Shown: positions 560 through 56,495, counted from the first letter of the whole stretch. The stretch: DNA of 63,237 nucleotides, filler included, from Reclinomonas americana ATCC 50394 (GCA_048213135.1; 14 parts of 14 records of this genome joined end to end with filler, not necessarily neighbours in it); one strand, 5' to 3'. The notes: a model not told the origin generated them from the sequence alone. Numbers and translations: made by a program.

Positions 560-3096
<2,537 letters not shown>

Positions 3097-3443: not shown

Positions 3444-4834
3444 TTATCCAATGAGAATCTTCGTCTCGTCGAGGAACTTGTAGGTCGGGATCTCCAGGTT
3501 GAACGGAGCCGGGCCCTTGCGGATGCGTCCCGAGGTGTCGTAGTGACTGGGAGGGAAGCAGTGAGCACGTGCGGTGCAGTGTGATGGACAGGGAAACAGC
3601 AACACAATAAACACACAAACCTGCCGTGGCACGGGCAGAACTGTGTGTGTGTGTGTGAAGGAAAACAAAATGATCACCATGGGTGAGCAACACACTTATC
3701 AGAATACATCTCCATCATCACTCACCCAGCCACCAAAGTCACCAGAGCCACCAATGGGCACGCAACCAAGGTGAGTGCACACGCCGAGCACAATCTGTCG
3801 CCACCACGATTAGTTTTCTATCTGGCGCAGCGACTGGCCACTGTGTTGAGAAACAACGCACCAGCCACTCGGGCTTGGGGAAGCGCTCAGCATCAGTTTG
3901 CTGGTGGCGCAGTTCAGCGAGCGGAACAGAAGCGGCAGCCTCGATCTCAGAAGGGGTGCGGTGGCGGATGAACACCGGCTTGCTGCATGATGCGAAGCAC
4001 GAGGCACATGAGTTACTTCTCTCCTTCGCACGTTGCAGTTATCCCACTCACCCCCTCCACTTGACAGTCATAGACGAGCCCTCAGCCAGATTCGCCACAT
4101 CGACTTCCACAGAGGCCAACGCCAGCACATCAGCCGACGCCGTCATTCTACAGCCAACAACCCCTAAGTCACAGACATTGGGAGATGACGATGCAGAGAG
4201 AGAGAGAGACGCAACGTGTAGATAAACTTGAGCACCATGACACGCACAGCAGCCGAGTACACAAAGCGACCAGTGCCGAGCACAAAGTACGCAAAGGTGC
4301 GCTTTGTCGGATCACCACCACCTGTGCATCAACAGATCAGACTGCATCATCGCGTTGTTATGCGCACGTGTGACACACACACTCAGTCGCAACTCTTCAG
4401 GTACGACAGCTGCTGCTCCTTGTTGTAGTAGCCAGTGTCGAGCGAAGGCGCCTGCGTGCTTGTCGCAAAGAATCGCTGACCATCTGAGAGAGAGCGCGCG
4501 CACATGAGGCCAACAGCTCACAACAAGAGCAGACAAGAGAGAAAAGAGACGCAACTGAGCGACGCTGTGAGCACAGGCGACGACGCGTTCAGTGCACCAC
4601 GCGGGCGCAGCAAACTGCAACATTGTGTGAGTGAGAGAGTGCGACATGGAAATGACATGGTGGGGCACACTTTTGAGCAGACCTCTGTCGCTGCGGCACA
4701 GGCACAGGCTCAACATGCGCCGCCTGCACCGCCAGTGCGGCCGCACCGCGCGCTGCAGGCACGCGGAACGCAGTGGTGGCCAGACGCGACGCTGAGCCAA
4801 ACACAGAGCGAACCACTCCTCCAGAGAACACCAT
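3444..4834 (-). CDS. UQCRFS1: Mitochondrial cytochrome bc1 Rieske iron-sulfur protein, multi-exon; start approximate
   Basis: Spliced product has [86 protein letters not shown], i.e. both Rieske boxes; Arg/Ser/Ala-rich N-terminus resembles a mitochondrial presequence. Confidence 0.96.
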
Positions 4835-11092: not shown

Positions 11093-14000
11093 ATGGACGA
11101 CGCGTCTGCGTTCTTTGACGCTGAGGAGGAGGAGGAGGAGGAGGAGGATGAGAGCTTTGATGGGAGCATTGACGACGACGAGGAGGATGATGATGGCGAT
11201 GATGATGATGAAAGTGTGAGCGAGCTGCAGCAGCAGCAAACAGCAGAGGTCATTGATGTGGACGTCGATGAGAGCGAGGGGAGTGAGGATGGCGATGAGT
11301 ATCCGGAGGCCGATGCTGGCAGCGATGAGATGCGCCAAGTGTCGTCTGAGGGCGAGGAGGAAGAGGAAGAGCAAGAGCAGCAAGAGCAGGAGCTCGAGGA
11401 GCAGTCGGAGGCCGACAATGAGGACGAGGGTGATGATGAGGATGAGGACGGCGAGGCGCAGGTGGAGACAATGGCGATGAAGCAAGCGTCGCCCAAAATG
11501 GTATGCCGCCAACACACACATTGCTCGTGTACACTCTCTCGCGCTCACTGCGTGTCGTCGCCTGCAGAGTTCTCGGTCGCCGGCGAGCCTGCAGCCAGTG
11601 TCGCACGACTCGCACCCACTGCCCATGATGCTGCTTTCGCCACCACCACCGCCGCCGCCTCCGCCGCCTCCGCCGCCACCTCCGCCACCGCCGCCACCCG
11701 CACATTCCAGTAGTGATGATGTGTTGTCAGAGTCGCACGGTGGTGCATTTGGCGAGCAGGAGCCGCAGGAGGAGGAGGAGGTGGTGGAGGAGGAAGAGCG
11801 CCACATGGTTTCCACTGGCGCACTGCAAGAGTCGTCGTCGGTGGCATCGGCGGGCAGCGCGACTCCGTCGACACTCTTGTCGGCGCTCCAGCTCATGTCG
11901 CCGCAGACGCCCATGGCGCTCGACTCGCCGTTTGTGTCCGCCAGTCGCCTGCGTACTCGTCAGCACCCCGCTGGCGGCTCCCCGCAGTTGTCGGCATCGG
12001 CGTCGGCACCAGCTGGCGACGGGCACGGTGGCGATTTGGCGTCGCCACTGCTGCTGCCGCGGTCGCCGCAACTGCGCGCCACCAAGAAGCGTCTGCTTGG
12101 CGTGAACTCGGACTCGGACGACGACAGTTCAAGTGACGCCGACTCGCGTGCCCCGGAGGAGAAGAAGCAGCGACACGACACGACGCCGGAGTCGTTGGCC
12201 GCCCCCGGTGCGCAGCTGCTGACCGACTCGAATCTGACGCAAAGCACGCGACAGTGGGTCGCCGATGCCGAGGTTGGTGTCCCCCCACTTCTGTTGCTCA
12301 TTGTTGTGCATTGTGCACTCACACACGCACATCACCAGATGTCACTGGACCGCAACAAGGTCGACGAGGCGGTGCGCATTATTGATTTCATTTGTCAGCG
12401 CGAGCCCAATTACGTGCCCGCTCTGCTCGTGCGCACGTCCATCTTGCAACGGCAGGAGAAGTTGGATGGTGAGGCCGCCTGCCTGCTGTGTTTCTTGTGT
12501 AACTTCAGTTGCTCATGCAGTGCGGCAGAGGCGCTGGCGGTGCTGGATCGTGTGCTGGTCTTGCGACCGATTGAAGTGCGTGCACTGATCGGGCGAGGCG
12601 TGGTGCTGCGCAAGTTGCTGCGGTTAGAGGAGGCCGTTTCGGCACTCGAGCGTGCTCTGGAATTGGATCCCGACTCGACAGCGGCAAAGGCCGAGCTCGC
12701 TGTGACATTGACCGACTTGGGAACTAATCGGCTCACTCACGGACTGCCAGAGGCCGGCTACCACATGTATGAGCGTGCGGTCGAGCTCGATCCGCAGTAC
12801 GCACCGGCGTATTTCAACATGGGCGTCATGTTGCGTCGGATGCGCGCAGATATGAGTGTGTAGAATGTGTGCTTACGCGATTTTCATGTGCAGGCTGTCG
12901 GACAGCTCCATCCCCGACGACGCGCAGCGGGCGTACGAAAAGGCAATTGAGATGAATCCGACCTACGTGGAGGCACTCTGCAATTTGGGTGTGCTGCACA
13001 AGAATCGAGGTTTGACGACGCGCAGCGCCTGCCTGCATATTCACCACCACCACCTCGTTTTTCTCACATTTTGACCGCATACAGGAATGTTGGAGGAGGC
13101 GGTGCAGCTGCTGGAGCGCGCTCTGGTACTCAGCCCGCAAGTGGACTTGGTGCGTTCCAACTTGGCGTTGGCACTCTCCGATCTGGGTTCAGCAGTCAAG
13201 GCCAAGGGCGACGCGGCGCGCGCCCTGAAGCTCTACGAGCGCAGCATTATCGTACTTCCATCGTTTGCGCAAGCGCACTACAACATGGGCGTGTGGTACG
13301 CGGAGACGGGCGACTTGCAAAGAGTGCGCTGTTGCTCCCCTTGACTTGATTATCTATTCGCCTCTTTGACATTGTCTCTTTTGTGCGCAGGCCACCATGT
13401 GCTACCGGCTCGCTGTGCAGTTTGCGCCGGACTACGCCGAGGCCCACAACAATCTGGGAGTGGTCCTCAAGGAACAGGGCGACTTGCAGGGCAGTGCCGA
13501 GGCGTACCATCGGGCGTTGCGAGCACACGTGCATCCGCAGACCCTCAACAATCTCGGCGTGCTGTACACTCTGCAAGGAAATGTTGCGTGGTGGCATCTC
13601 CTTGTACTCGCGTATTGTCACGGATTTCCATCACTCACTCCTCACGCAGTACGCCGAGGCTTTCCGCTTGCTGACCGAGGCTGTGAAACTGGACGAGACG
13701 TACGCTGATGCGTGGAACAATCTCGGTGTGCTCTATCGAGACGCAGGCCAGATCTGGGAGGCGATTCGCGCGTACTCGCGTGCCCTGCAGTACGATCCCG
13801 ACAGCGAGACCGCTGGTCCGAATCGACTCATGGCCATGAACTGTTGCGTTGCTCTTTGTATCTCGCCGCTTGTCAAGGCGCTTGCCAACTTTCTGACTTA
13901 CCCCCGCACATGCAGACCTGGATGAGCTGTCGGTCAAGACCATTTTCGATGAGCACAAGGCGTGGGGCAATCGCATGATATCGCGGTGCGCGCCGTGCAA

Positions 14001-16027
14001 ATCGTGGCCGAATGCAGCATCATGTGTGCCGTCGGTGGATGTGCGTCTCTCCTCGCTTGATCTCTATGCAGTCCAGGTCGCTCACGGTGTTGATGAGCAG
14101 GGTGTGTTGCCGTACGGGCGACCACTGGTAATTGGGTACCTTTCACCCGACTTTTTCACGCACTCGGTATCGTACTTTATCCACGCGCCACTGCGGTGCC
14201 ATGACCGTTCGCAATTCCGCATCATCCTGTTGCGTCATCCTTGTGTGTGTGTGTGTGTGTGTGTGTGCGAAACGAGGAACAGACATGCTCACTCGTGCAA
14301 CAGCTACTCGAATGTCCAATACCCCGACAAGAAGACCGAGATGTTCAAGTCGCTGGGTCACGAATGGCGCGACGTTTTTGGCCGCTCGGCTGCCGACGTG
14401 TGCGACATGATTCGTGCCGATGGCGTCGACATTCTTGTCGATCTCGCCGGTCACACGGCGCTGAATCGTCTGGATGTGATGGCCAGGAAGCCGGCACCTG
14501 TCAGCGTGACGTTGCGTGCTTCTCTTCCCCTCGCGCCGCTGAGTGATGCAGGTGACTCATACAGTGTTGCGCAGGTGGATTGGCTACCCGAATACCACCG
14601 GCCTCACCACGGTCGACTACCGCATTACGGATGGTGTTGTGGATCCAGAGTCGACCGAGCAGCCGTACACGGAGCGACTGTGGCGCATGCCGCGAGCATT
14701 CCTCTGCTACACTCCAATCGCGTCACCGCCACCTGTGTCACCGGTGGGTGCAGACTGAAGTGATGCGGCTCTTATCCCTCCCGCATTCATCACTCTCTCC
14801 CTCTCTCGCGCAGGCACCGTATGTAAAGAACGAATTCATCACCTTTGGCACCTTCAACAGCGTGGCCAAGATGACGCCACGCGTGCTGCGTTTGTGGAGC
14901 CGCGTGACGCTGTCGGTACCGAAGTCGGTGCGTCGCGTGCATGCTGGTGACCGCGATCGTGTGTGATTTGCTGACTTTTTGCGTTTGTTCTGCAGCGTCT
15001 GCTCCTGAAATCCAAGACCTTTGCGTGTGACAGCGTTCGCGAGCGCATGTGGGAGGCCCTGGAGAGCAGCGGCCTTCCGCGGCATCGCGTCGACTTGCTG
15101 CCGCTGCTGCCTGACGCCAAGGATCATCTCGATTGCTATTCGTACCTCGACATTTCACTTGACACGTTCCCGTGCGTTCTCCGACAACTCCCCTCACTGT
15201 GTTCGTTTGGCTCTCCCGTGTGCTCACCGAATGTGACACGCAGGTATGCTGGCACAACGACCACCACCGAGTGCTTCCTAATGAGCGTGCCGGTGATTTC
15301 GCTGCGCACGGCGTCGAATCACGCGCACAATGTCGGTGCGTGAATGAGACTCACTCCTGTGATCTTCTTTGTATCCACCCTTCACTGATTATCGAATACC
15401 AGGCGCCACTCTTTTGCACCATGTGGGCCACCCGGAGCTGATTGCCGACTCGGAGGATGAATATGTACGGATTGCGTGCGAGTTGGCCAACGATGTCGAG
15501 CGTCTGCTGCGATTGCGTTCCACATTGCGGTTCGTACCGCACTCATCTTTCTATCCACATGTGTTCTACACGCTCATCATTACTGCAGCGACGAGTTCCT
15601 GGCCTCCTCCCTGTGCGATGCACCGCTGTTCACTGCCGATCTGGAGGACAGCTACATCCAGATGTGGTCCGAGTACCTGCAGCAGTGGGCATCGCAGGCT
15701 GACGCCGAACCAGAACCTGCCGCCAATGGCGCAGTTCTCCACCTACCTCTCCGGCTACCCATGCCGCCTCCACCTCCACCACCGCCGCCACCACCACCAC
15801 CGCCATTGTTTTCGTCGCTCACGACGCAGTCGTTCACGGCGGTGAAACGAGCACCCATCATGGCGCCATCGTTGCGTGTGCACACTACACATCGTGGGCG
15901 TTGTTCTTCACTTGTGACTCACCTTCACTCGTGCTGCAGACCCGACGACGACGTCGACTTGCTGTCCGCCGACTTTAGCAGCAGTGGCGGCGACCCGTTT
16001 CCACCATACGACGGCGACCAACCATAG
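11093..16027 (+). CDS. SPY: SPINDLY-like protein O-fucosyltransferase (TPR array + GT41 catalytic domain), about 18 exons
   Basis: TPRs (YAPAYFNMGV, YVEALCNLGVLHKNRG, YAEAHNNLGVVLK); catalytic motifs RPLVIGYLSPDFFTHSVSYFI, DILVDLAGHTALNRLDVMARKPAPVSVT|WIGYPNTTGL, ITFGTFNSVAK, DISLDTFP|YAGTTTT, HAHNVG. Confidence 0.93.
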
Positions 16028-16178: not shown

Positions 16179-19100
16179 GATGAGTTCTGCAGCGGCTGGT
16201 GGCAGCAGCGGCGATGGTGGACCGAGGCCAGCGGGAATGTCCAACAGTGCGCCCTCTTCACGAGCCTCCTCGCGATCCTCGTCGCCAACTCTGGGCGGCA
16301 ACAGCGCCATGGCAGTGCTGTCGATCGCCGATCTGCTGCAAGTGGCGGCCATTGAAAACAAGTGGACAGTCGACCTGCTGGAGCACGTCACACGAGTGCT
16401 TTCGCGACAGGTTACGATCATCATCTCATCATGCGTGTCCAGTCTCTCTTTTTCTCTCGCTCACACGCACGGTGACACACACACACACACACAGTTCGGC
16501 AGTGTTCGTGAGTTGTGCGATCGGATTCGCGTGCTGATGGGCCAGGGAATCGCGGAAGAGTGCCTGCCTCCACTTGTGTTTGAGCAGATTGCGAGTTGTG
16601 TTCAGAGCAGTTGTCCATCGCGCACCCTTCCTGCTAATGTCCTCGAGAACAGCGGTTGGACGACACGTTCTTGGTCTGCCCATGATGGGTCTCATGCCGT
16701 CCAGTGCGTCGTCGTCTGCGCTGCAACAGCTTGAGCGACCGCGATCGCGACGGTACTCGGCGGCGCGTCGCAGTGCCCTGCTGAGCAGTGGTCAGCTGGC
16801 GGATGTCATGCTGGTGGTCAGTGCCTTCCCAGCAGAGTCGCCCGGCTGCGCGACACCGGACGGGGGTGAGTGTCGCTTTGCGGCCGCGGAGGAGTGGCGC
16901 ACGGCGGATGCGGTGAGCGAGAGCGCTGCACCGCGCGAGGACGCCAGTCTGCAGTCGCTGGTGAGCGAACTGGCGGTCAAACTGACGCTCTCCAGCGCAC
17001 AACAGGACCTCATTCTGTCGGTGGCCAAGTCGCGGGTTGGTGGCATTTACGTGCGGCTTGTTTGTGTCGCTCACCTGTGTTGCTCACGTGCTTCTGTAGT
17101 TTGCCACCGCTTCTGAGTTCCTGCGCGCAAATTGGGACGAGCTGGAGCAGTCTGGCTTGCATCCGTCGCCCGAGGCCGTGTATTGCAAGCCGTTGCCGCC
17201 GGTCTTGCTTCGTCGCATTCGCAGTTGCGATGCGCATGCACTTTCCATGAGATCCAGTGCCAAGCGCCGTGCACTCATTCTCACCGACGTCTCGCAGAAC
17301 ACCTGACCGACTCGGGAGCATTCGAGGCCGCTCGTGCCGGTGACTTGGAGGAGCAGGATGCGTCGTCGCCAGCCCTCCCGTCGCCTCCTCCGATACCCAA
17401 TGCGCAACCAGACTTGAGTGCGTCTTTGGTGTCGCTTGTGAGTGAGAGTGCCGACTGTGCCTCACTGCTCTTGTCGTCTGCAGGTGATGCCGCGCAGTCG
17501 CAACTATTCTTGAACTGCTGTGTGCGTAGTGTGGCACGACGTACTCTCTCATTCTACCGCGCGTGGGTCTGATCTGCTCTTCCTCCACAGCTGCTCGAGC
17601 AATACACAATGGTGTACGACGGGTCGATAGCCGAGTACATCAACAGGTCGCCGTTGGACGCGCACTCGCTGACCGGTGCCGTGCTGCTGCATGTGCTACC
17701 GCCCCACGAGTGCGCCTTGCCGCCGTACGTGATTGTCGCTGCGGAGGCGCGTGATATTGAGACGAACGACACGCTTGTTATTCTGCATGTGCCGCACGAC
17801 ACTGCTGCGCGTCTGCTGACCGAGGAAATTGGTGCCGGTGCGCTGTGCGTGTGCGTACGATTGCCTACTGGTTCAGAAAAAATAACTGCGATGTTTCTTC
17901 TCCAAACAGCGGCGGGCGCTCCACCTTTCTTCTGGTTCCTCGGCGAGATCATCAATCGGTGTTCGATTCTGTGCAATCTGCGTGAGCCTCGCACCACTCT
18001 GGTTGTCTCTGGCGTCCCCAATGTGAGTCGCTGCTGTGCATGCGCAAGTGGCACAGTGCCTAGTCTCTTACCATGCTCGGCAGCCGGGGTCGCACGACGC
18101 CATTCTGAACACACTGGCCCTCTGCAATCTCCCACTGCCTCGCATCGAGTATTATGACGGTTCGTTGCTTGCAATTGTACATGCCACCCCTCTCTTGCGT
18201 GTCACTCAACCGCCACGCGGCGCAGACCTGCGAGGAGGCGACTGCATCAAGCGGTACATGGCCAGTGAGCAGCGCCTTGTTGCGTCCGTTTCTTGTTGCG
18301 TTGCGTCGGCGGAAGTTCATCGTGAGGCACAGATTGATCTCAATCGATCCGTCAAGTCGGCAGCCATGCGTCTGGCCAAGCCCGGTGCACCGCCACGACC
18401 GCGAATACTGTGCGGACACGGACTTCCGCGGGTGGGTGACTCGGTGCGACCGATTATCAGCAGCTGTCGACGTGTGTTTACCGAGAATCCGTACGACTAT
18501 CGATTGGTGTTGTTGGGCGAGCGACTGGAGACGGTGGTGCAGGTACGCGTGCACACCACGATTCAGTCGCTTCACGATTCCCTCTCTCTCATGTCGCTGT
18601 GTGCGGGGCACATTCAGGTTCGCACCTCGACCGGCAGCTATGCGCGGATTGTGGAACGCACCACCACCTACTTGTTCATTGACGTGTTTTGCGACCCGTC
18701 GTCGGCGCCGGAAATGTTTGTTCTCGTGTACTCGGCCTTCGACACGGCGGAGCCAGTCAAAGTGGCGCTCTCGGCCGAGGTGACGATGCAATTTCTTTTC
18801 CGCAATCGTTGCAGCACTCACATGACTTTGTATGTGCGTGTAGGATGCTCCCGTCGGTCGTAGTCACCAGATTCTGTTTCACACACCACTCGAGTTGCTG
18901 GAGTTCATGAAGGAGCTGAGTCTCATGCTGTTCTTGGTCAGCGTACGCGAGCAGGCTGCCGTGTGGTTCCAGCTGCACGAGGTGTGTGCGCGTGTAGCCG
19001 GCCGCATTGGGAGACTTGTACTCACCACATCACGTCTCCAGTTTGTGATGCGTTCGTTGCAGGGACTCGCCGAGGTCTTGCCGGTGCGTTTCACTGCCTT

Positions 19101-21455
19101 TGTTGATTACACGGCATCTGCGACAGAAAAGCTCACCATCCTGCAGTGCGACTACCTCATGTTTCTACCGTACACGACGGAGATGATTCCGCGCAAGGTG
19201 TGTCGTCGGTGCATCCAGTCCCTTCTCATCCCACACATGTTGACACCACGTGTGCCATTTTTGCAGACACGCTGGTGGCCATGGCGCGACCCACATCACC
19301 GAGGCGGACTGCATTCGCGTCTCTCACGCCCCAAGACTGCCATGTCGCCGAGCCAAAGCCTGATCGCCGATCTGCTCGACAATCCGGCCAACTTTTCTGT
19401 TGCGTGCTCCTTTCTGCTGTCGTTGCGATTTGTAGATTCTCACGAGATGGGGTGCGCCGCTTGTATCAGCGATTCCACGAGGTCGCTGGTGGTACCCAGC
19501 TATACGCCATTCTCGAGTGGTATCTGCAGCATGCGTGGTTCAGTTCAATATTTGTGCGCAAGCTGCTGCAGAAGAAGCACTCGCAGCCGAAATCCATTGG
19601 TCTGTGCATTTCGTGGATTGCGATTTTTGTGTCTCGCGCAGCTGACATCTCCGTCGATGCAGCTGAGTTGGAGGGCTTTGAGGACTTTTCGGTGTTGTGG
19701 AACGAGCAACGATTGACCAAGATCGGAACGCAAATCGAACTGCTGCAGGAGGCCTTCCGCGTGTATCTCTACCTGACCACACCGCCTGTCGATGCTCACG
19801 ACCAGTGGACGGTGTTCCTGGTACAATGTGATTTGGCACAGGCAAATATGGGGGTTGCGTTGTCGTCGGATGTGAAACAAGGGTGTTTCATGTTCACTGT
19901 TGTCCTTGACGTCGAGGCTGACTGGCTGTTTTCCCTCCCGTTCAGCAAGTGGACTGTGAGCAGCACTACTCTCGCCGTGTGGCACGGTGTGCTCGATTGG
20001 TGCAAGAAAAAGCTGGCGAACTCGGCTACTTTAGCGACATTCGTGGCGAGGAGTTTGGTGTGCTGGAGCAGCTGTTTACCTCCATGCGCGGCCAGGAGGA
20101 TTATTGCGGCACACATGGCTCCGATCAGGCGGTTCGGAATCGCTTGAGTCACCAAGCGAGGAGTTGCGTGTGTGTGAGTATGCATCAAAGCAGCGTGCGA
20201 TTCACTCACGTGGTTCGCGGTAGTCGACTTGGGTGTGATCAACATTATTCGAGAGGTGCGCTATCGGCTGACACAGGAGGCGCAGTACGTTGGTACGTTT
20301 TCGTGTTCCACTTTGCAGTGCGATGTGTGTACTGATTGGCGTGCTTGCTGCAGTGGTCATTGGTCCGGCAGGAGTTTTGTGGCGTTGCTTTGTGTCGGTG
20401 GTGGTGGTGGTGGTGGCTTCATTCTTGCTGACACTTGCACACAGAGTGGCAAGTCGCAGCTCACACGCTTGTGTGACGTGGACTTTGTACCGATTGATGT
20501 CGTGCCGACAGATAGCGTTGCGTGCCAGTCGCACCAGTTCACGAAACCGTGCACTCTCGACTGACGTGTTTGCAGTTCTCAATACACAATCTGCTCCTCG
20601 ATGAGCTGACGGAAGCTCTCACGGTGGCTTTGGTCGACACGCCACCACTGGCCAGTCGCGGCGATTACTTTTGGAATCTGCGGCGAGTAGTCAACGCCGC
20701 CTCCTTTGTGGTGGTGGTGTGGCCCGACATTATCAACAATCCATTCGACGACGATGCCGACACTGACGAATGGCGCCGGTATTTGCAGTATGTTGCGTAC
20801 TTTCACTGCCGACCTGCGCGAGTTGTCCACAAGGTGATGACCGCGGTGGTGGTGGTGTTGGGTGCAGTTGTTCCAGTATTTCGACGGCCGTCTGCTGTGC
20901 TTGCTCAACAAAATGGACGAACGTGCACGCCAGTGTTATGTGCGCGGTGAGACGGCGGATGAGATGGCGCAAATGATGCGCGACGTGTATGCCGAGGAGT
21001 CGGCCAAACTCAGCGAGGCGACCAACTGCCCACACATCAGTCGCTTCCTCCGCATGAGCGTGCTCGACGACTCGGTACTGCAACTCAGTGCACCGCGTGC
21101 GACCATGTTTCGTGAGGCCTGTGACCGACTCGTTCGAGAGGTGCGATACCACACCACGCCCTTGCACTTGTTGCTCTCTCTCTCTCTCTCACTCTCTCTT
21201 TTCCCGCGCACAGCACGCTCACCTGCAGGTCGTCGGTCTGTCGCATGTCAAATCAATCATCACCCAGAGTCTCTTCGCCGTGCCGCCAACATTCTCATGA
21301 CACATTCGCAAGTGTACAACAACATGTGTAGCTATTCATACAAACACTTTACAAGGTCGTATTCAGTCCCGAACTATGCTGCATCACTAGCGTCTTCATC
21401 CGAGACACAGCGTCGGCCACCTGTAATGCGACACGATCAGCGGCAGGAGAAGTAA
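16179..21455 (+). CDS. Large multi-exon protein with a C-terminal P-loop NTPase (GTPase-like) domain
   Basis: Splicing out 20374-20444 gives YVVVIGPAG|SGKSQLTR (Walker A), followed by TVALVDTPP (G3-like) and ASFVVVVW; the upstream ~1000 aa are unrecognised. Confidence 0.6.
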
Positions 21456-55433: not shown

Positions 55434-56495
55434 ATGTCGGTGCAGGTCTTGCGGGGCCACACAGGGACGGTACGATGTGTCGCTATCACGCCGAATGGTC
55501 AGCGCATCGTGAGTGGGAATAGAGACAGCACAGTGCGTGTGTGGTCACTGGCGAGTGGCGAAGAAGTGCAACGGTTGGAGGGACACACTGAACGGGTAAT
55601 GTCTGTCGCCGTCACTGCCGACGGCCAGCGCATTGTGAGTGGCAGTAGAGACAACACGTTACGAGTGTGGTCTCTGGCACGTGGCGACGAAGTACGGCGG
55701 TTAGAGGGGCACACTGGATGGATTTACTCTGTCGTTGTCACTCCCGATGATCAACACATCATAAGCGGGAGTTCGGACCAGACAGTGCGAGTGTGGTCAC
55801 TGGCGAGTGTCGAAGAAGAACGGCAGCTGACGTTGGCAAGACGTGCCGGCGTAGTGTGGTCCCTTGCTGTCACTCCCGATGGTCAACACATTGTGAGCGG
55901 GGGCGAGGACAGAACAGTGCGGGTGTGGTCACTGGCGAGTGGAGAGGAAGTGCGGCGACTGGATGGACACATTGGAACTGTGTGGTCCGTCGCCGTCTCG
56001 CCTGATGGCCTGCATATCGTGAGCGGAAGCGGGGATAAGACAGTGCGGGTGTGGACCCTCGCGAATGGAGACGGAGTGTGGCGGATGCAGGGGCACAGTG
56101 GTGCAGTGCTGTCTGTCGCCGTCACTCCCGATGGTCAGCACGTCGTGAGTGGAAGTGCCGACAAGACGGTGCGTGTGTGGTCTTTCGCGCATGGAGAAGA
56201 AGTGCGACGGTTGGAGGGGCACATTAACTGGGTCCTCGCTGTCGTCGTTACTCCTGATGGCCAGCACATCGTGAGTGGCAGTCGGGACGAGACGATCCGT
56301 GTGTGGTCCACGCCGCGTGGGCTGGCGAGGCAAGAGCTTGCAGCCGCGCAATCAGCCGTGCTGGCCGTCAACGAGCTGCTTGCTGAAGAAGATGACTGTA
56401 ACTGGATCCTGGTCGATGTCGCGCTGCGCTGTTTTGTGTTGGAGGATGCAGAGGCGATTGAACGCCGTGCGCCTGAATGGTGCTGGACGGAGTGA
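55434..56495 (+). CDS. Intronless seven-repeat WD40 protein with a short helical C-terminal tail
   Basis: Seven highly similar ~42-aa repeats with consensus LEGH...V.SVAVTPDGQHIVSGS.D.TVRVWSLA.GEEVRR in a single uninterrupted ORF. Confidence 0.93.
   Translation: MSVQVLRGHTGTVRCVAITPNGQRIVSGNRDSTVRVWSLASGEEVQRLEGHTERVMSVAVTADGQRIVSGSRDNTLRVWSLARGDEVRRLEGHTGWIYSVVVTPDDQHIISGSSDQTVRVWSLASVEEERQLTLARRAGVVWSLAVTPDGQHIVSGGEDRTVRVWSLASGEEVRRLDGHIGTVWSVAVSPDGLHIVSGSGDKTVRVWTLANGDGVWRMQGHSGAVLSVAVTPDGQHVVSGSADKTVRVWSFAHGEEVRRLEGHINWVLAVVVTPDGQHIVSGSRDETIRVWSTPRGLARQELAAAQSAVLAVNELLAEEDDCNWILVDVALRCFVLEDAEAIERRAPEWCWTE

Follow-up and report, generated by a model that had tools for sequence, protein, structure and literature searches.

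Why should a single gene open some of its introns with GTTGCGT and others with donors resembling GTGCGT, and does the last base of the exon decide between the two? The question is raised by a TPR and glycosyltransferase-41 gene (TPR/GT41; O-GlcNAc transferase or SPINDLY-like) in a 63,237-nucleotide stretch of DNA (the window) from Reclinomonas americana ATCC 50394 (GCA_048213135.1). A preliminary description of this locus had noted that donors with the intron motif shifted one base away from the cut never follow an exonic G, and had suggested that the first G of the intron (+1G) substitutes for the missing last exon G (-1G) in pairing with the U1 small nuclear RNA (snRNA). Here we show that donor class is tied to the last exon base far beyond chance, since among all classified introns of the window (six ambiguous ones set aside) -1G was present at 5/54 shifted and 70/98 normal donors (p=2.7e-14). 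We regard it as on balance probable that one seven-base U1 frame takes up two positions relative to the cut, and that the class is set by the last exon base.

The window consists of eukaryotic nuclear DNA, has about 57% G+C and is dense in short introns, and our analysis drew on its 63 kb, on protein homologs and on published papers, all introns being predicted. They were called with a self-written gene finder, in which a Markov coding score by codon position is combined with models of acceptor, branch and length. Its donor model covers intron positions +3 to +9 only, so that exon bases are never seen. Seeded with frames backed by Pfam or by an obvious WD40 translation and self-trained for four rounds, it returned 27 gene models, of which 17 scored at least 10 and together contain 158 introns, whereas the reversed, non-complemented window used as a control gave a single model of at least 10 with zero introns, and eight introns in 13 low-scoring models. 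Frame openness alone was of no use for locating introns in the window, and a Pfam scan that took in 113 of the 307 open reading frames (ORFs) of at least 100 amino acids produced useful matches for two genes only.

A two-component mixture fitted to positions +3 to +9 separated, unprompted, a GT-TGCGT component (weight 0.36) from a GT-GCGT-like component (weight 0.64). The shifted class holds G, C, G and T at positions +4 to +7 with frequencies of 0.83, 0.87, 0.96 and 0.76, and the normal class holds the same bases at positions +3 to +6 with frequencies of 0.60, 0.47, 0.95 and 0.69; the intron consensus of shifted donors is displaced by exactly one base compared to normal donors of the same organism. 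Shifted donors are also stricter than normal ones, with exact GTTGCGT accounting for 31/54.

The contrast in the last exon base was found again among better-scoring signals (-1G at 2/42 shifted versus 51/74 normal donors, p=3.3e-12) and among introns of 50-130 nucleotides (nt) needed for the reading frame (3/40 versus 53/74, p=1.2e-11). The contingency test of the -1 base against donor register that the preliminary description had proposed, run on the window with its own motif definitions, gave the same answer, -1G preceding 2/40 GTTNNGT and 25/47 GTRNGT donors (p=5.7e-7). Stratification by codon phase left the contrast in place (p=6.5e-12), and most of the 16 gene models with classified donors showed it in the same direction. 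When only perfect motifs are considered, -1G precedes 1/37 GTTGCG and 19/31 GTGCG donors (p=6e-8); seen from the exon, GTGCG and GTTGCG stand at 19:1 after G, and GTTGCG and GTGCG at 36:12 after other exon ends. Perfect GTGCGT has -1G in 11/22 cases versus 1/33 for exact GTTGCGT (p=5e-5), and as the intron sides compared here are equally strong, the effect exceeds general compensation between exon and intron. Normal donors carry an excess of -1G (70/98 versus an expectation of about 30% ahead of exonic GT of matching phase), while shifted donors fall below the coding background of 22-26%, both as a class (5/54) and as exact GTTGCG (1/37, p of about 0.001).

GTTGCGT occurs at 46 sites in the window on both strands, of which 33 were called as donors, and the 13 uncalled sites follow G in four cases, which is near background. 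One of these four is exonic, five bases past an acceptor, two are antisense to genes, and one, at 3766 on the minus strand, is only a candidate in a badly modelled region. Counting motifs over the window irrespective of gene models gave -1G at 5/46 GTTGCGT and 33/102 GTGCGT sites, a weaker contrast because 80/102 of the GTGCGT sites were not called as donors. The earlier claim that shifted donors never follow G stands for the TPR/GT41 gene and is slightly too strong for the window, where the donor at 19854 (Table 1) and four further shifted donors do so; several of the weak shifted calls with -1G are probably miscalls. We also observed three GTTGCGT copies within the 28 bases that open one called intron (18279-18306, plus strand; copies at 18279, 18295 and 18300), the latter two overlapping as GTTGCGTTGCGT, and these may be tandem alternative donors.

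In the TPR/GT41 gene, both TPR and Glyco_transf_41 matches were found by Pfam on its ORFs, and the spliced product aligns to homologs over residues of about 400 to 1175. Junctions were judged on the best 40 of 120 high-scoring segment pairs (HSPs) with homologs that had been found using one exon, a junction being counted as gapped when a gap fell within four residues of it. The six GTTGCGT donors in 12830..15871 were confirmed at the positions and after the exon ends that had been described for them, and so were the normal-register donors after exonic G, four within this range and two upstream of it, as well as the two normal donors that follow non-G exon ends (Table 1; the slash marks the predicted cut). 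The AA/, CA/, GA/ and GT/ exon ends reported in the same context were located too, e.g., at 1498, 1620, 20163 and 679, all of them outside this range. Within the gene, -1G was present at 0/6 shifted versus 8/11 normal donors (Fisher p=0.009).

At two of these junctions, the encoded protein bears on where the cut lies. At 13843, the split codon encodes Y and matches Y in 89/120 HSPs, while a cut one base later would give C; homology thus supports a cut before the G of GTTGCGT at this junction. At 13583, the upstream GU is weakly favoured, the first residue downstream being Y where homologs show L, F or Y, and at the four other shifted junctions both possible cuts give an identical protein. The candidate intron 14041-14100 ends in GAGCAG and could be either coding or spliced out. 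The closest matches to the exon used for the search were long bacterial TPR-GT41 proteins of 58-60% identity, with Ferrovibrio and Rhodospirillales among the few that are named; no product of the window itself was among these matches in a search restricted to longer proteins.

Table 1. Genes, donors and introns discussed in the text (all from the window; HSP counts for the TPR/GT41 gene refer to the best 40 of 120).
Feature	Position	Strand	Intron and phase	Basis and remarks
TPR + glycosyltransferase-41 (O-GlcNAc transferase/SPINDLY-like) gene model	11093..16027	+		17 called introns, 1263 codons
Shifted donor AT/GTTGCGT	12830..12836	+	12830-12893, phase 2	31 HSPs cover, 5 gapped
Shifted donor AT/GTTGCGT	13583..13589	+	13583-13649, phase 0	39 HSPs cover, 5 gapped
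Shifted donor CT/GTTGCGT	13843..13849	+	13843-13915, phase 1	40 HSPs cover, 0 gapped
Shifted donor CT/GTTGCGT	14229..14235	+	14229-14303, phase 2	40 HSPs cover, 0 gapped
Shifted donor AC/GTTGCGT	14511..14517	+	14511-14574, phase 2	40 HSPs cover, 0 gapped
Shifted donor TC/GTTGCGT	15871..15877	+	15871-15939, phase 2	Gene model; unconserved C-terminal tail, 0 homologs cover
Normal donor G/GTATGC	11501	+		Same gene, upstream of 12830..15871
Donor G/GTTGGT	12273	+		Added here, counted with the normal class
Normal donor G/GTGAGG	12469	+		Same gene, upstream of 12830..15871
Weak normal-register donor G/GTTTGA	13010..13015	+	13010-13084	Added here; 35 HSPs cover, 0 gapped
Normal donor GA/GTGCGC (non-G exon end)	13324..13329	+	13324-13390	39 HSPs cover, 3 gapped
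Candidate normal donor T/GTGCGT	14041..14046	+	14041-14100, in-frame, 60 nt	30/40 HSPs gapped here
Normal donor G/GTGGGT	14744..14749	+	14744-14813	Gene model and homolog HSPs
Normal donor G/GTGCGT	14928..14933	+	14928-14995	Gene model and homolog HSPs
Normal donor CC/GTGCGT (non-G exon end)	15172..15177	+	15172-15243	Gene model and homolog HSPs
Normal donor G/GTGCGT	15336..15341	+	15336-15402	Gene model and homolog HSPs
Normal-register donor G/GTTCGT	15530..15535	+	15530-15588	Gene model and homolog HSPs
Sole exact GTTGCGT donor called after exon G, GGGG/GTTGCGT	19854..19860	+	19854-19945	Gene finder
Katanin p60-like AAA ATPase gene	560..3096	+		Pfam AAA matches, gene model, 57 homolog HSPs and tblastn
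Katanin gene, shifted-type donors	2001 T/GTTTTGT; 2152 A/GTTTCGT; 2252 A/GTTCCGT; 2622 T/GTTGCGT	+		Model
Katanin gene, normal donors, all after G	788, 1780, 2346, 2900	+		Model
Micro-exon of 24 nt (PSTIFIDE) in the katanin-like AAA ATPase gene	2322-2345	+		Homologs; skipped by gene finder

The katanin gene provided a second check by homology, its spliced product being aligned to homologs that one of its exons had retrieved. Its junctions at 2001, 2152 and 2622 are well backed by homologs, and the micro-exon is flanked by the shifted-type donor at 2252 and a weak donor, G/GTTGGC, at 2346. Over this micro-exon the gene finder had called a false intron of 165 nt, which was exposed by the katanin homologs; long introns from the gene finder are not to be trusted. 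When junctions crossed by no fewer than 30 HSPs, of which no more than 20% were gapped, were combined with the two fixed by the micro-exon, the resulting 21 homology-supported junctions had -1G at 0/10 shifted versus 9/11 normal donors (p=2e-4). No GTTGCG was found at intron starts in 25 metagenome loci related to a katanin exon, at identities of up to 77%.

Beyond the donor, the two classes look alike. The branch motifs (CTCAC, then CTGAC), their spacing and the GCAG acceptor, in which G occupies position -4 in 101/152 classified introns, are common to both, and median intron lengths are 70 and 69 nt; these shared features suggest that one machinery is at work beyond the 5' end. U12-type introns have their own donor consensus and an extended branch consensus near the acceptor, and shifted introns do not qualify as such, their branch motifs, spacing and acceptor being equal to those of normal introns and their donor being GTTGCGT. 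Many introns also contain (GT)n and (CA)n microsatellites, e.g., at 14240-14268 and at the acceptors of introns 16411 and 3857, and CACACACAG precedes several acceptors.

The reading that we prefer would account for the two classes as follows. Introns of both classes are of the GT-AG kind. The normal donor reads G/GTGCGT with many weaker variants and the shifted donor H/GTTGCGT, where H is A, C or T, and both present the same seven letters, G-N-T-G-C-G-T, with the predicted cut after the first G in the normal and before the first G in the shifted form. This frame would be recognised by the 5' arm of the U1 snRNA, which is expected to differ from the textbook arm because C is strongly kept at +4 in normal and at +5 in shifted donors. 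In a shifted donor, +1G would take the U1 base to which a normal donor pairs its last exon G, so that all pairing of the shifted donor would lie in the intron. As the last exon base is constrained by the codon, G-ending exons would take the normal donor and exons ending in A, C or T mostly the shifted one, and insertion or deletion of a single intronic T would be enough to turn either type of donor into the other, with the cut unmoved; the cut itself may be fixed later by U6 and U5 at the sole GU fronting the motif. A slide of this kind predicts that the base at the exon end loses its normal preference, in agreement with the 5/54 and 70/98 reported above.

To see what such an arm might look like, we compared hypothetical U1 arms by their modelled duplexes. 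Against exonic decoy GTs, the textbook arm gave an area under the curve (AUC) of 0.85 for normal donors and 0.37 for shifted donors, which thus scored below the decoys. Modelled arms with G facing intron +4 (normal) or +5 (shifted) performed better; those in which +2U, in the shifted frame, faces A or G reached about 0.9 for shifted donors, while C at this position was best for normal ones, and none of 64 modelled arms was good for both classes at once against the decoys (overall AUC 0.81 at best). The preliminary description had called for duplex energies in both registers, and these turned out unfavourable to a single arm of the normal type and compatible with a changed one. Of four arms compared, only a single substitution placing A opposite +2U abolished the predicted benefit of -1G for GUUGCGU, +1G being paired in this model with the C whose usual partner is the exon G, whereas an inserted-base arm or a normal-type arm predicts -1G enrichment, contrary to the data. 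The models point to a variant U1 arm or a second U1, and we lean towards a second, variant U1 with A opposite +2U that would serve the shifted class.

Further observations bear on this reading, most of them against it. The preliminary description had favoured a whole-register shift over a simple bulge, and when exon bases -1 to -3 of shifted donors were scored against the normal profile, the log-likelihood was -263.4 unshifted and -227.2 shifted by one, so that the unshifted alignment is rejected by 36 log units; its bad fit argues against a bulge that keeps exon pairing. A phase-aware coding null reached -226.2, and as the shifted alignment is no better than this, a whole-register shift is allowed by the exon bases and not demonstrated by them. 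The U1 arms are hypothetical and compared by duplex energies only, the pairing having been deduced from donor statistics, and an Rfam scan of the window gave no match, and so none to U1, U6 or U5. On an arm complementary to G/GUGCGU, GUUGCGU is weaker than GUGCGU after any exon base, and a shift involving a single U1 therefore needs an extra assumption; nearest-neighbour energies on the same arm even predict that -1G helps GUUGCGU. The substitution arm predicts that -1G is neutral where the data show depletion, and none of the four modelled arms favours U at -1, T being the commonest -1 base of exact GTTGCG donors (14/37). Finally, every junction and every cut site is a prediction, the calls contain errors such as the skipped micro-exon at 2322-2345, and 30/152 classified introns are both in-frame and stop-free, so that they are not demanded by the reading frame.

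Among the alternatives, the one that survives best, unlikely as we hold it to be, places the effect at the handover of the donor to U5 loop 1 and the U6 ACAGA box, where exon and intron would balance each other like a seesaw with no U1 register effect. Shifted donors would then simply be strong enough on the intron side to do without an exon G, and normal donors of weak match would depend on -1G. Two such classes, together with the rule that -1G permits any +5 base and vice versa, have been described in several eukaryotes (PMC11732430). The same trend is present within the normal class here, in which -1G accompanies 23/23 donors with two intron-side matches versus 11/20 with four (p=3e-4), and -1G is found at 54/71 of the donors outside both motif definitions of the preliminary description. 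A seesaw thus explains part of the effect. On the other hand, it does not account for the difference between GTGCGT and GTTGCGT at equal intron strength, nor for shifted donors dropping under the coding background for -1G instead of merely down to it. It also leaves the one-base-deeper position of the motif unexplained, a single register being what it would lead one to expect.

We consider it improbable that a separate RNA or particle, U11-like or based on another small RNA, serves the GTTGCGT introns and that the exon bias is the preference of this particle. The failure of any single arm among the 64 to separate both classes well speaks for such a division of labour, and yet branch motif, spacing, length and acceptor are equal in both classes, the window holds no RNA family match, and the GTTGCGT donor is unlike the U12-type consensus.

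A bulged register, in which the same U1 pairs with -1, +1 and +2, one U of +2/+3 bulges and GCGU pairs normally, appears very unlikely to us. Bulges at +2/+3 have been validated for a few dozen human sites, with 54 in a curated list (PMC4856993), and when -1G is present the modelled lowest-energy duplex of GGUUGCGU on the arm complementary to G/GUGCGU is indeed a bulged helix; the bulged U may still be required later, at the U6 stage. As the exon pair is kept, this model expects -1G to be at least as frequent as in normal donors, and neither the 5/54 of all shifted nor the 1/37 of exact GTTGCG donors agrees with this, in line with the unshifted exon alignment losing as described above.

Still less credit is due to a historical explanation, by which GTTGCGT introns would stem from an introner-like element that landed after non-G bases and brought its own donor. 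The uniformity of the shifted donors could be seen as a trace of such an origin. Introns derived in this way should in many cases resemble each other over their whole extent. An all-against-all comparison of the 158 introns of this one window gave 152 hits at E<1e-3, and the 20 of these that were inspected comprised one 21-base match between two intron starts, one 15-base match and repeated hits of one simple repeat; lengths and 3' signals equal those of normal introns, and shifted introns occupy conserved positions of old genes. That the contrast is an artefact of intron calling or misplaced cuts is hardly credible, for although all junctions are predicted and at least one structural error was made by the caller, the donor model is blind to exon bases, the reversed control had no introns in models of at least 10, the homology-supported subset keeps the contrast, uncalled GTTGCGT sites follow G at near background (4/13) versus 1/33 of those called, and at 13843 cutting one base further on would yield the wrong residue.

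The closest known systems are human 5' splice sites with unusual U1 registers. In the +1 shifted register of atypical human sites (Roca and Krainer, 2009, as described in Tan et al., 2016, PMC4856993), the conserved intron motif likewise lies one base further from the cut, and the proposal is that the whole U1 pairing moves by one base, with +1G replacing the last exon G; the oligonucleotide used for testing it has no GG at the junction, which we read as a non-G exon end. In humans this register is a rare exception that uses ordinary U1, whereas here it would apply to about one third of introns with a strict GTTGCGT, a systematic tie to the last exon base and probably a changed U1 arm; shifted pairing is known from a handful of human sites and had to be demonstrated minigene by minigene, while our case is built on sequence statistics. 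The bulge +2/+3 and asymmetric-loop registers (Tan et al., 2016, PMC4856993; reviewed in PMC9311317) similarly have one extra nucleotide between GU and the consensus, but they keep the exon-side pairs, and an exon-side G is avoided here. For 5' splice sites in general, -1G and intron strength are known to be anticorrelated (PMC11732430), and as in the two classes described there, one class here relies on the exon end, while the other relies on the intron; both published classes lie in a single register, in contrast to the displaced motif and the -1G below background that we found.

Co-evolution of U1 arm and donor has been reported for Entamoeba, with AACAAAC and GUUUGU, and for Mastigamoeba, with ACGUAC and GUACGU (Roy and Bowser, bioRxiv 10.1101/2022.06.08.495308). 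These share with our window a pyrimidine at intron +4 and an arm that appears retuned to match, and differ from it in having one donor consensus and one arm, where we find two consensus forms and deduce the arm from the donors. Donors of the form AG/GTGCGT occur in the Mamiellophyceae Micromonas (PMC3879977) and Ostreococcus (PMC2483917) and share the GTGCGT consensus of our normal class; a GTTGCGT class is not mentioned for them in the parts available of these papers, and neither the GC content nor the intron length of the window points to Mamiellophyceae. No description of GTTGCG or GUUGCG as a splice donor was found among the literature matches listed. The system described here is distinct from those known in the frequency of the shifted class, the strictness of its consensus and the regularity with which it goes with the last exon base.

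Two further features of the window deserve mention. Thirteen pairs of 44-N blocks lie between 6141 and 59686, with 12 real bases between the members of a pair and 1144 N in total; we read them as masked stretches, and they break up several gene models. An intron-free WD40 ORF of 353 codons (55434-56495, plus strand) scored 45 in the first pass of the gene finder and was lost after the coding model had been retrained on intron-rich genes. Its nearest protein atlas clusters are almost all bacterial or archaeal, and the ORF may have unusual codon usage or a foreign origin.

What these donors may mean for the organism is a routine two-frame donor code, an idea that we put forward tentatively and with more doubt than the two-position frame itself. 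In such a code, two U1 species, or one U1 in two registers, would read the same seven letters either astride the exon-intron border or entirely within the intron, evolution would place each intron in one frame or the other depending on the last exon base, constrained by the codon, being G or non-G, and insertion or deletion of a T would switch between the frames. If this is true, the last exon base predicts the U1 mode, or the U1 gene, that an intron needs. The shifted geometry seems to serve about a third of introns here and is cleanly marked, in the statistics, at the last exon base. In this genome, gene finders that have learnt GTRNGT donors would misplace about one third of exon ends. Should RNA data and the U1 genes agree, this organism would offer a natural system for studying how the cut site is fixed when U1 sits one base off, how U6 and U5 handle donors with +5C, and how a U1 arm and thousands of donors evolve together.

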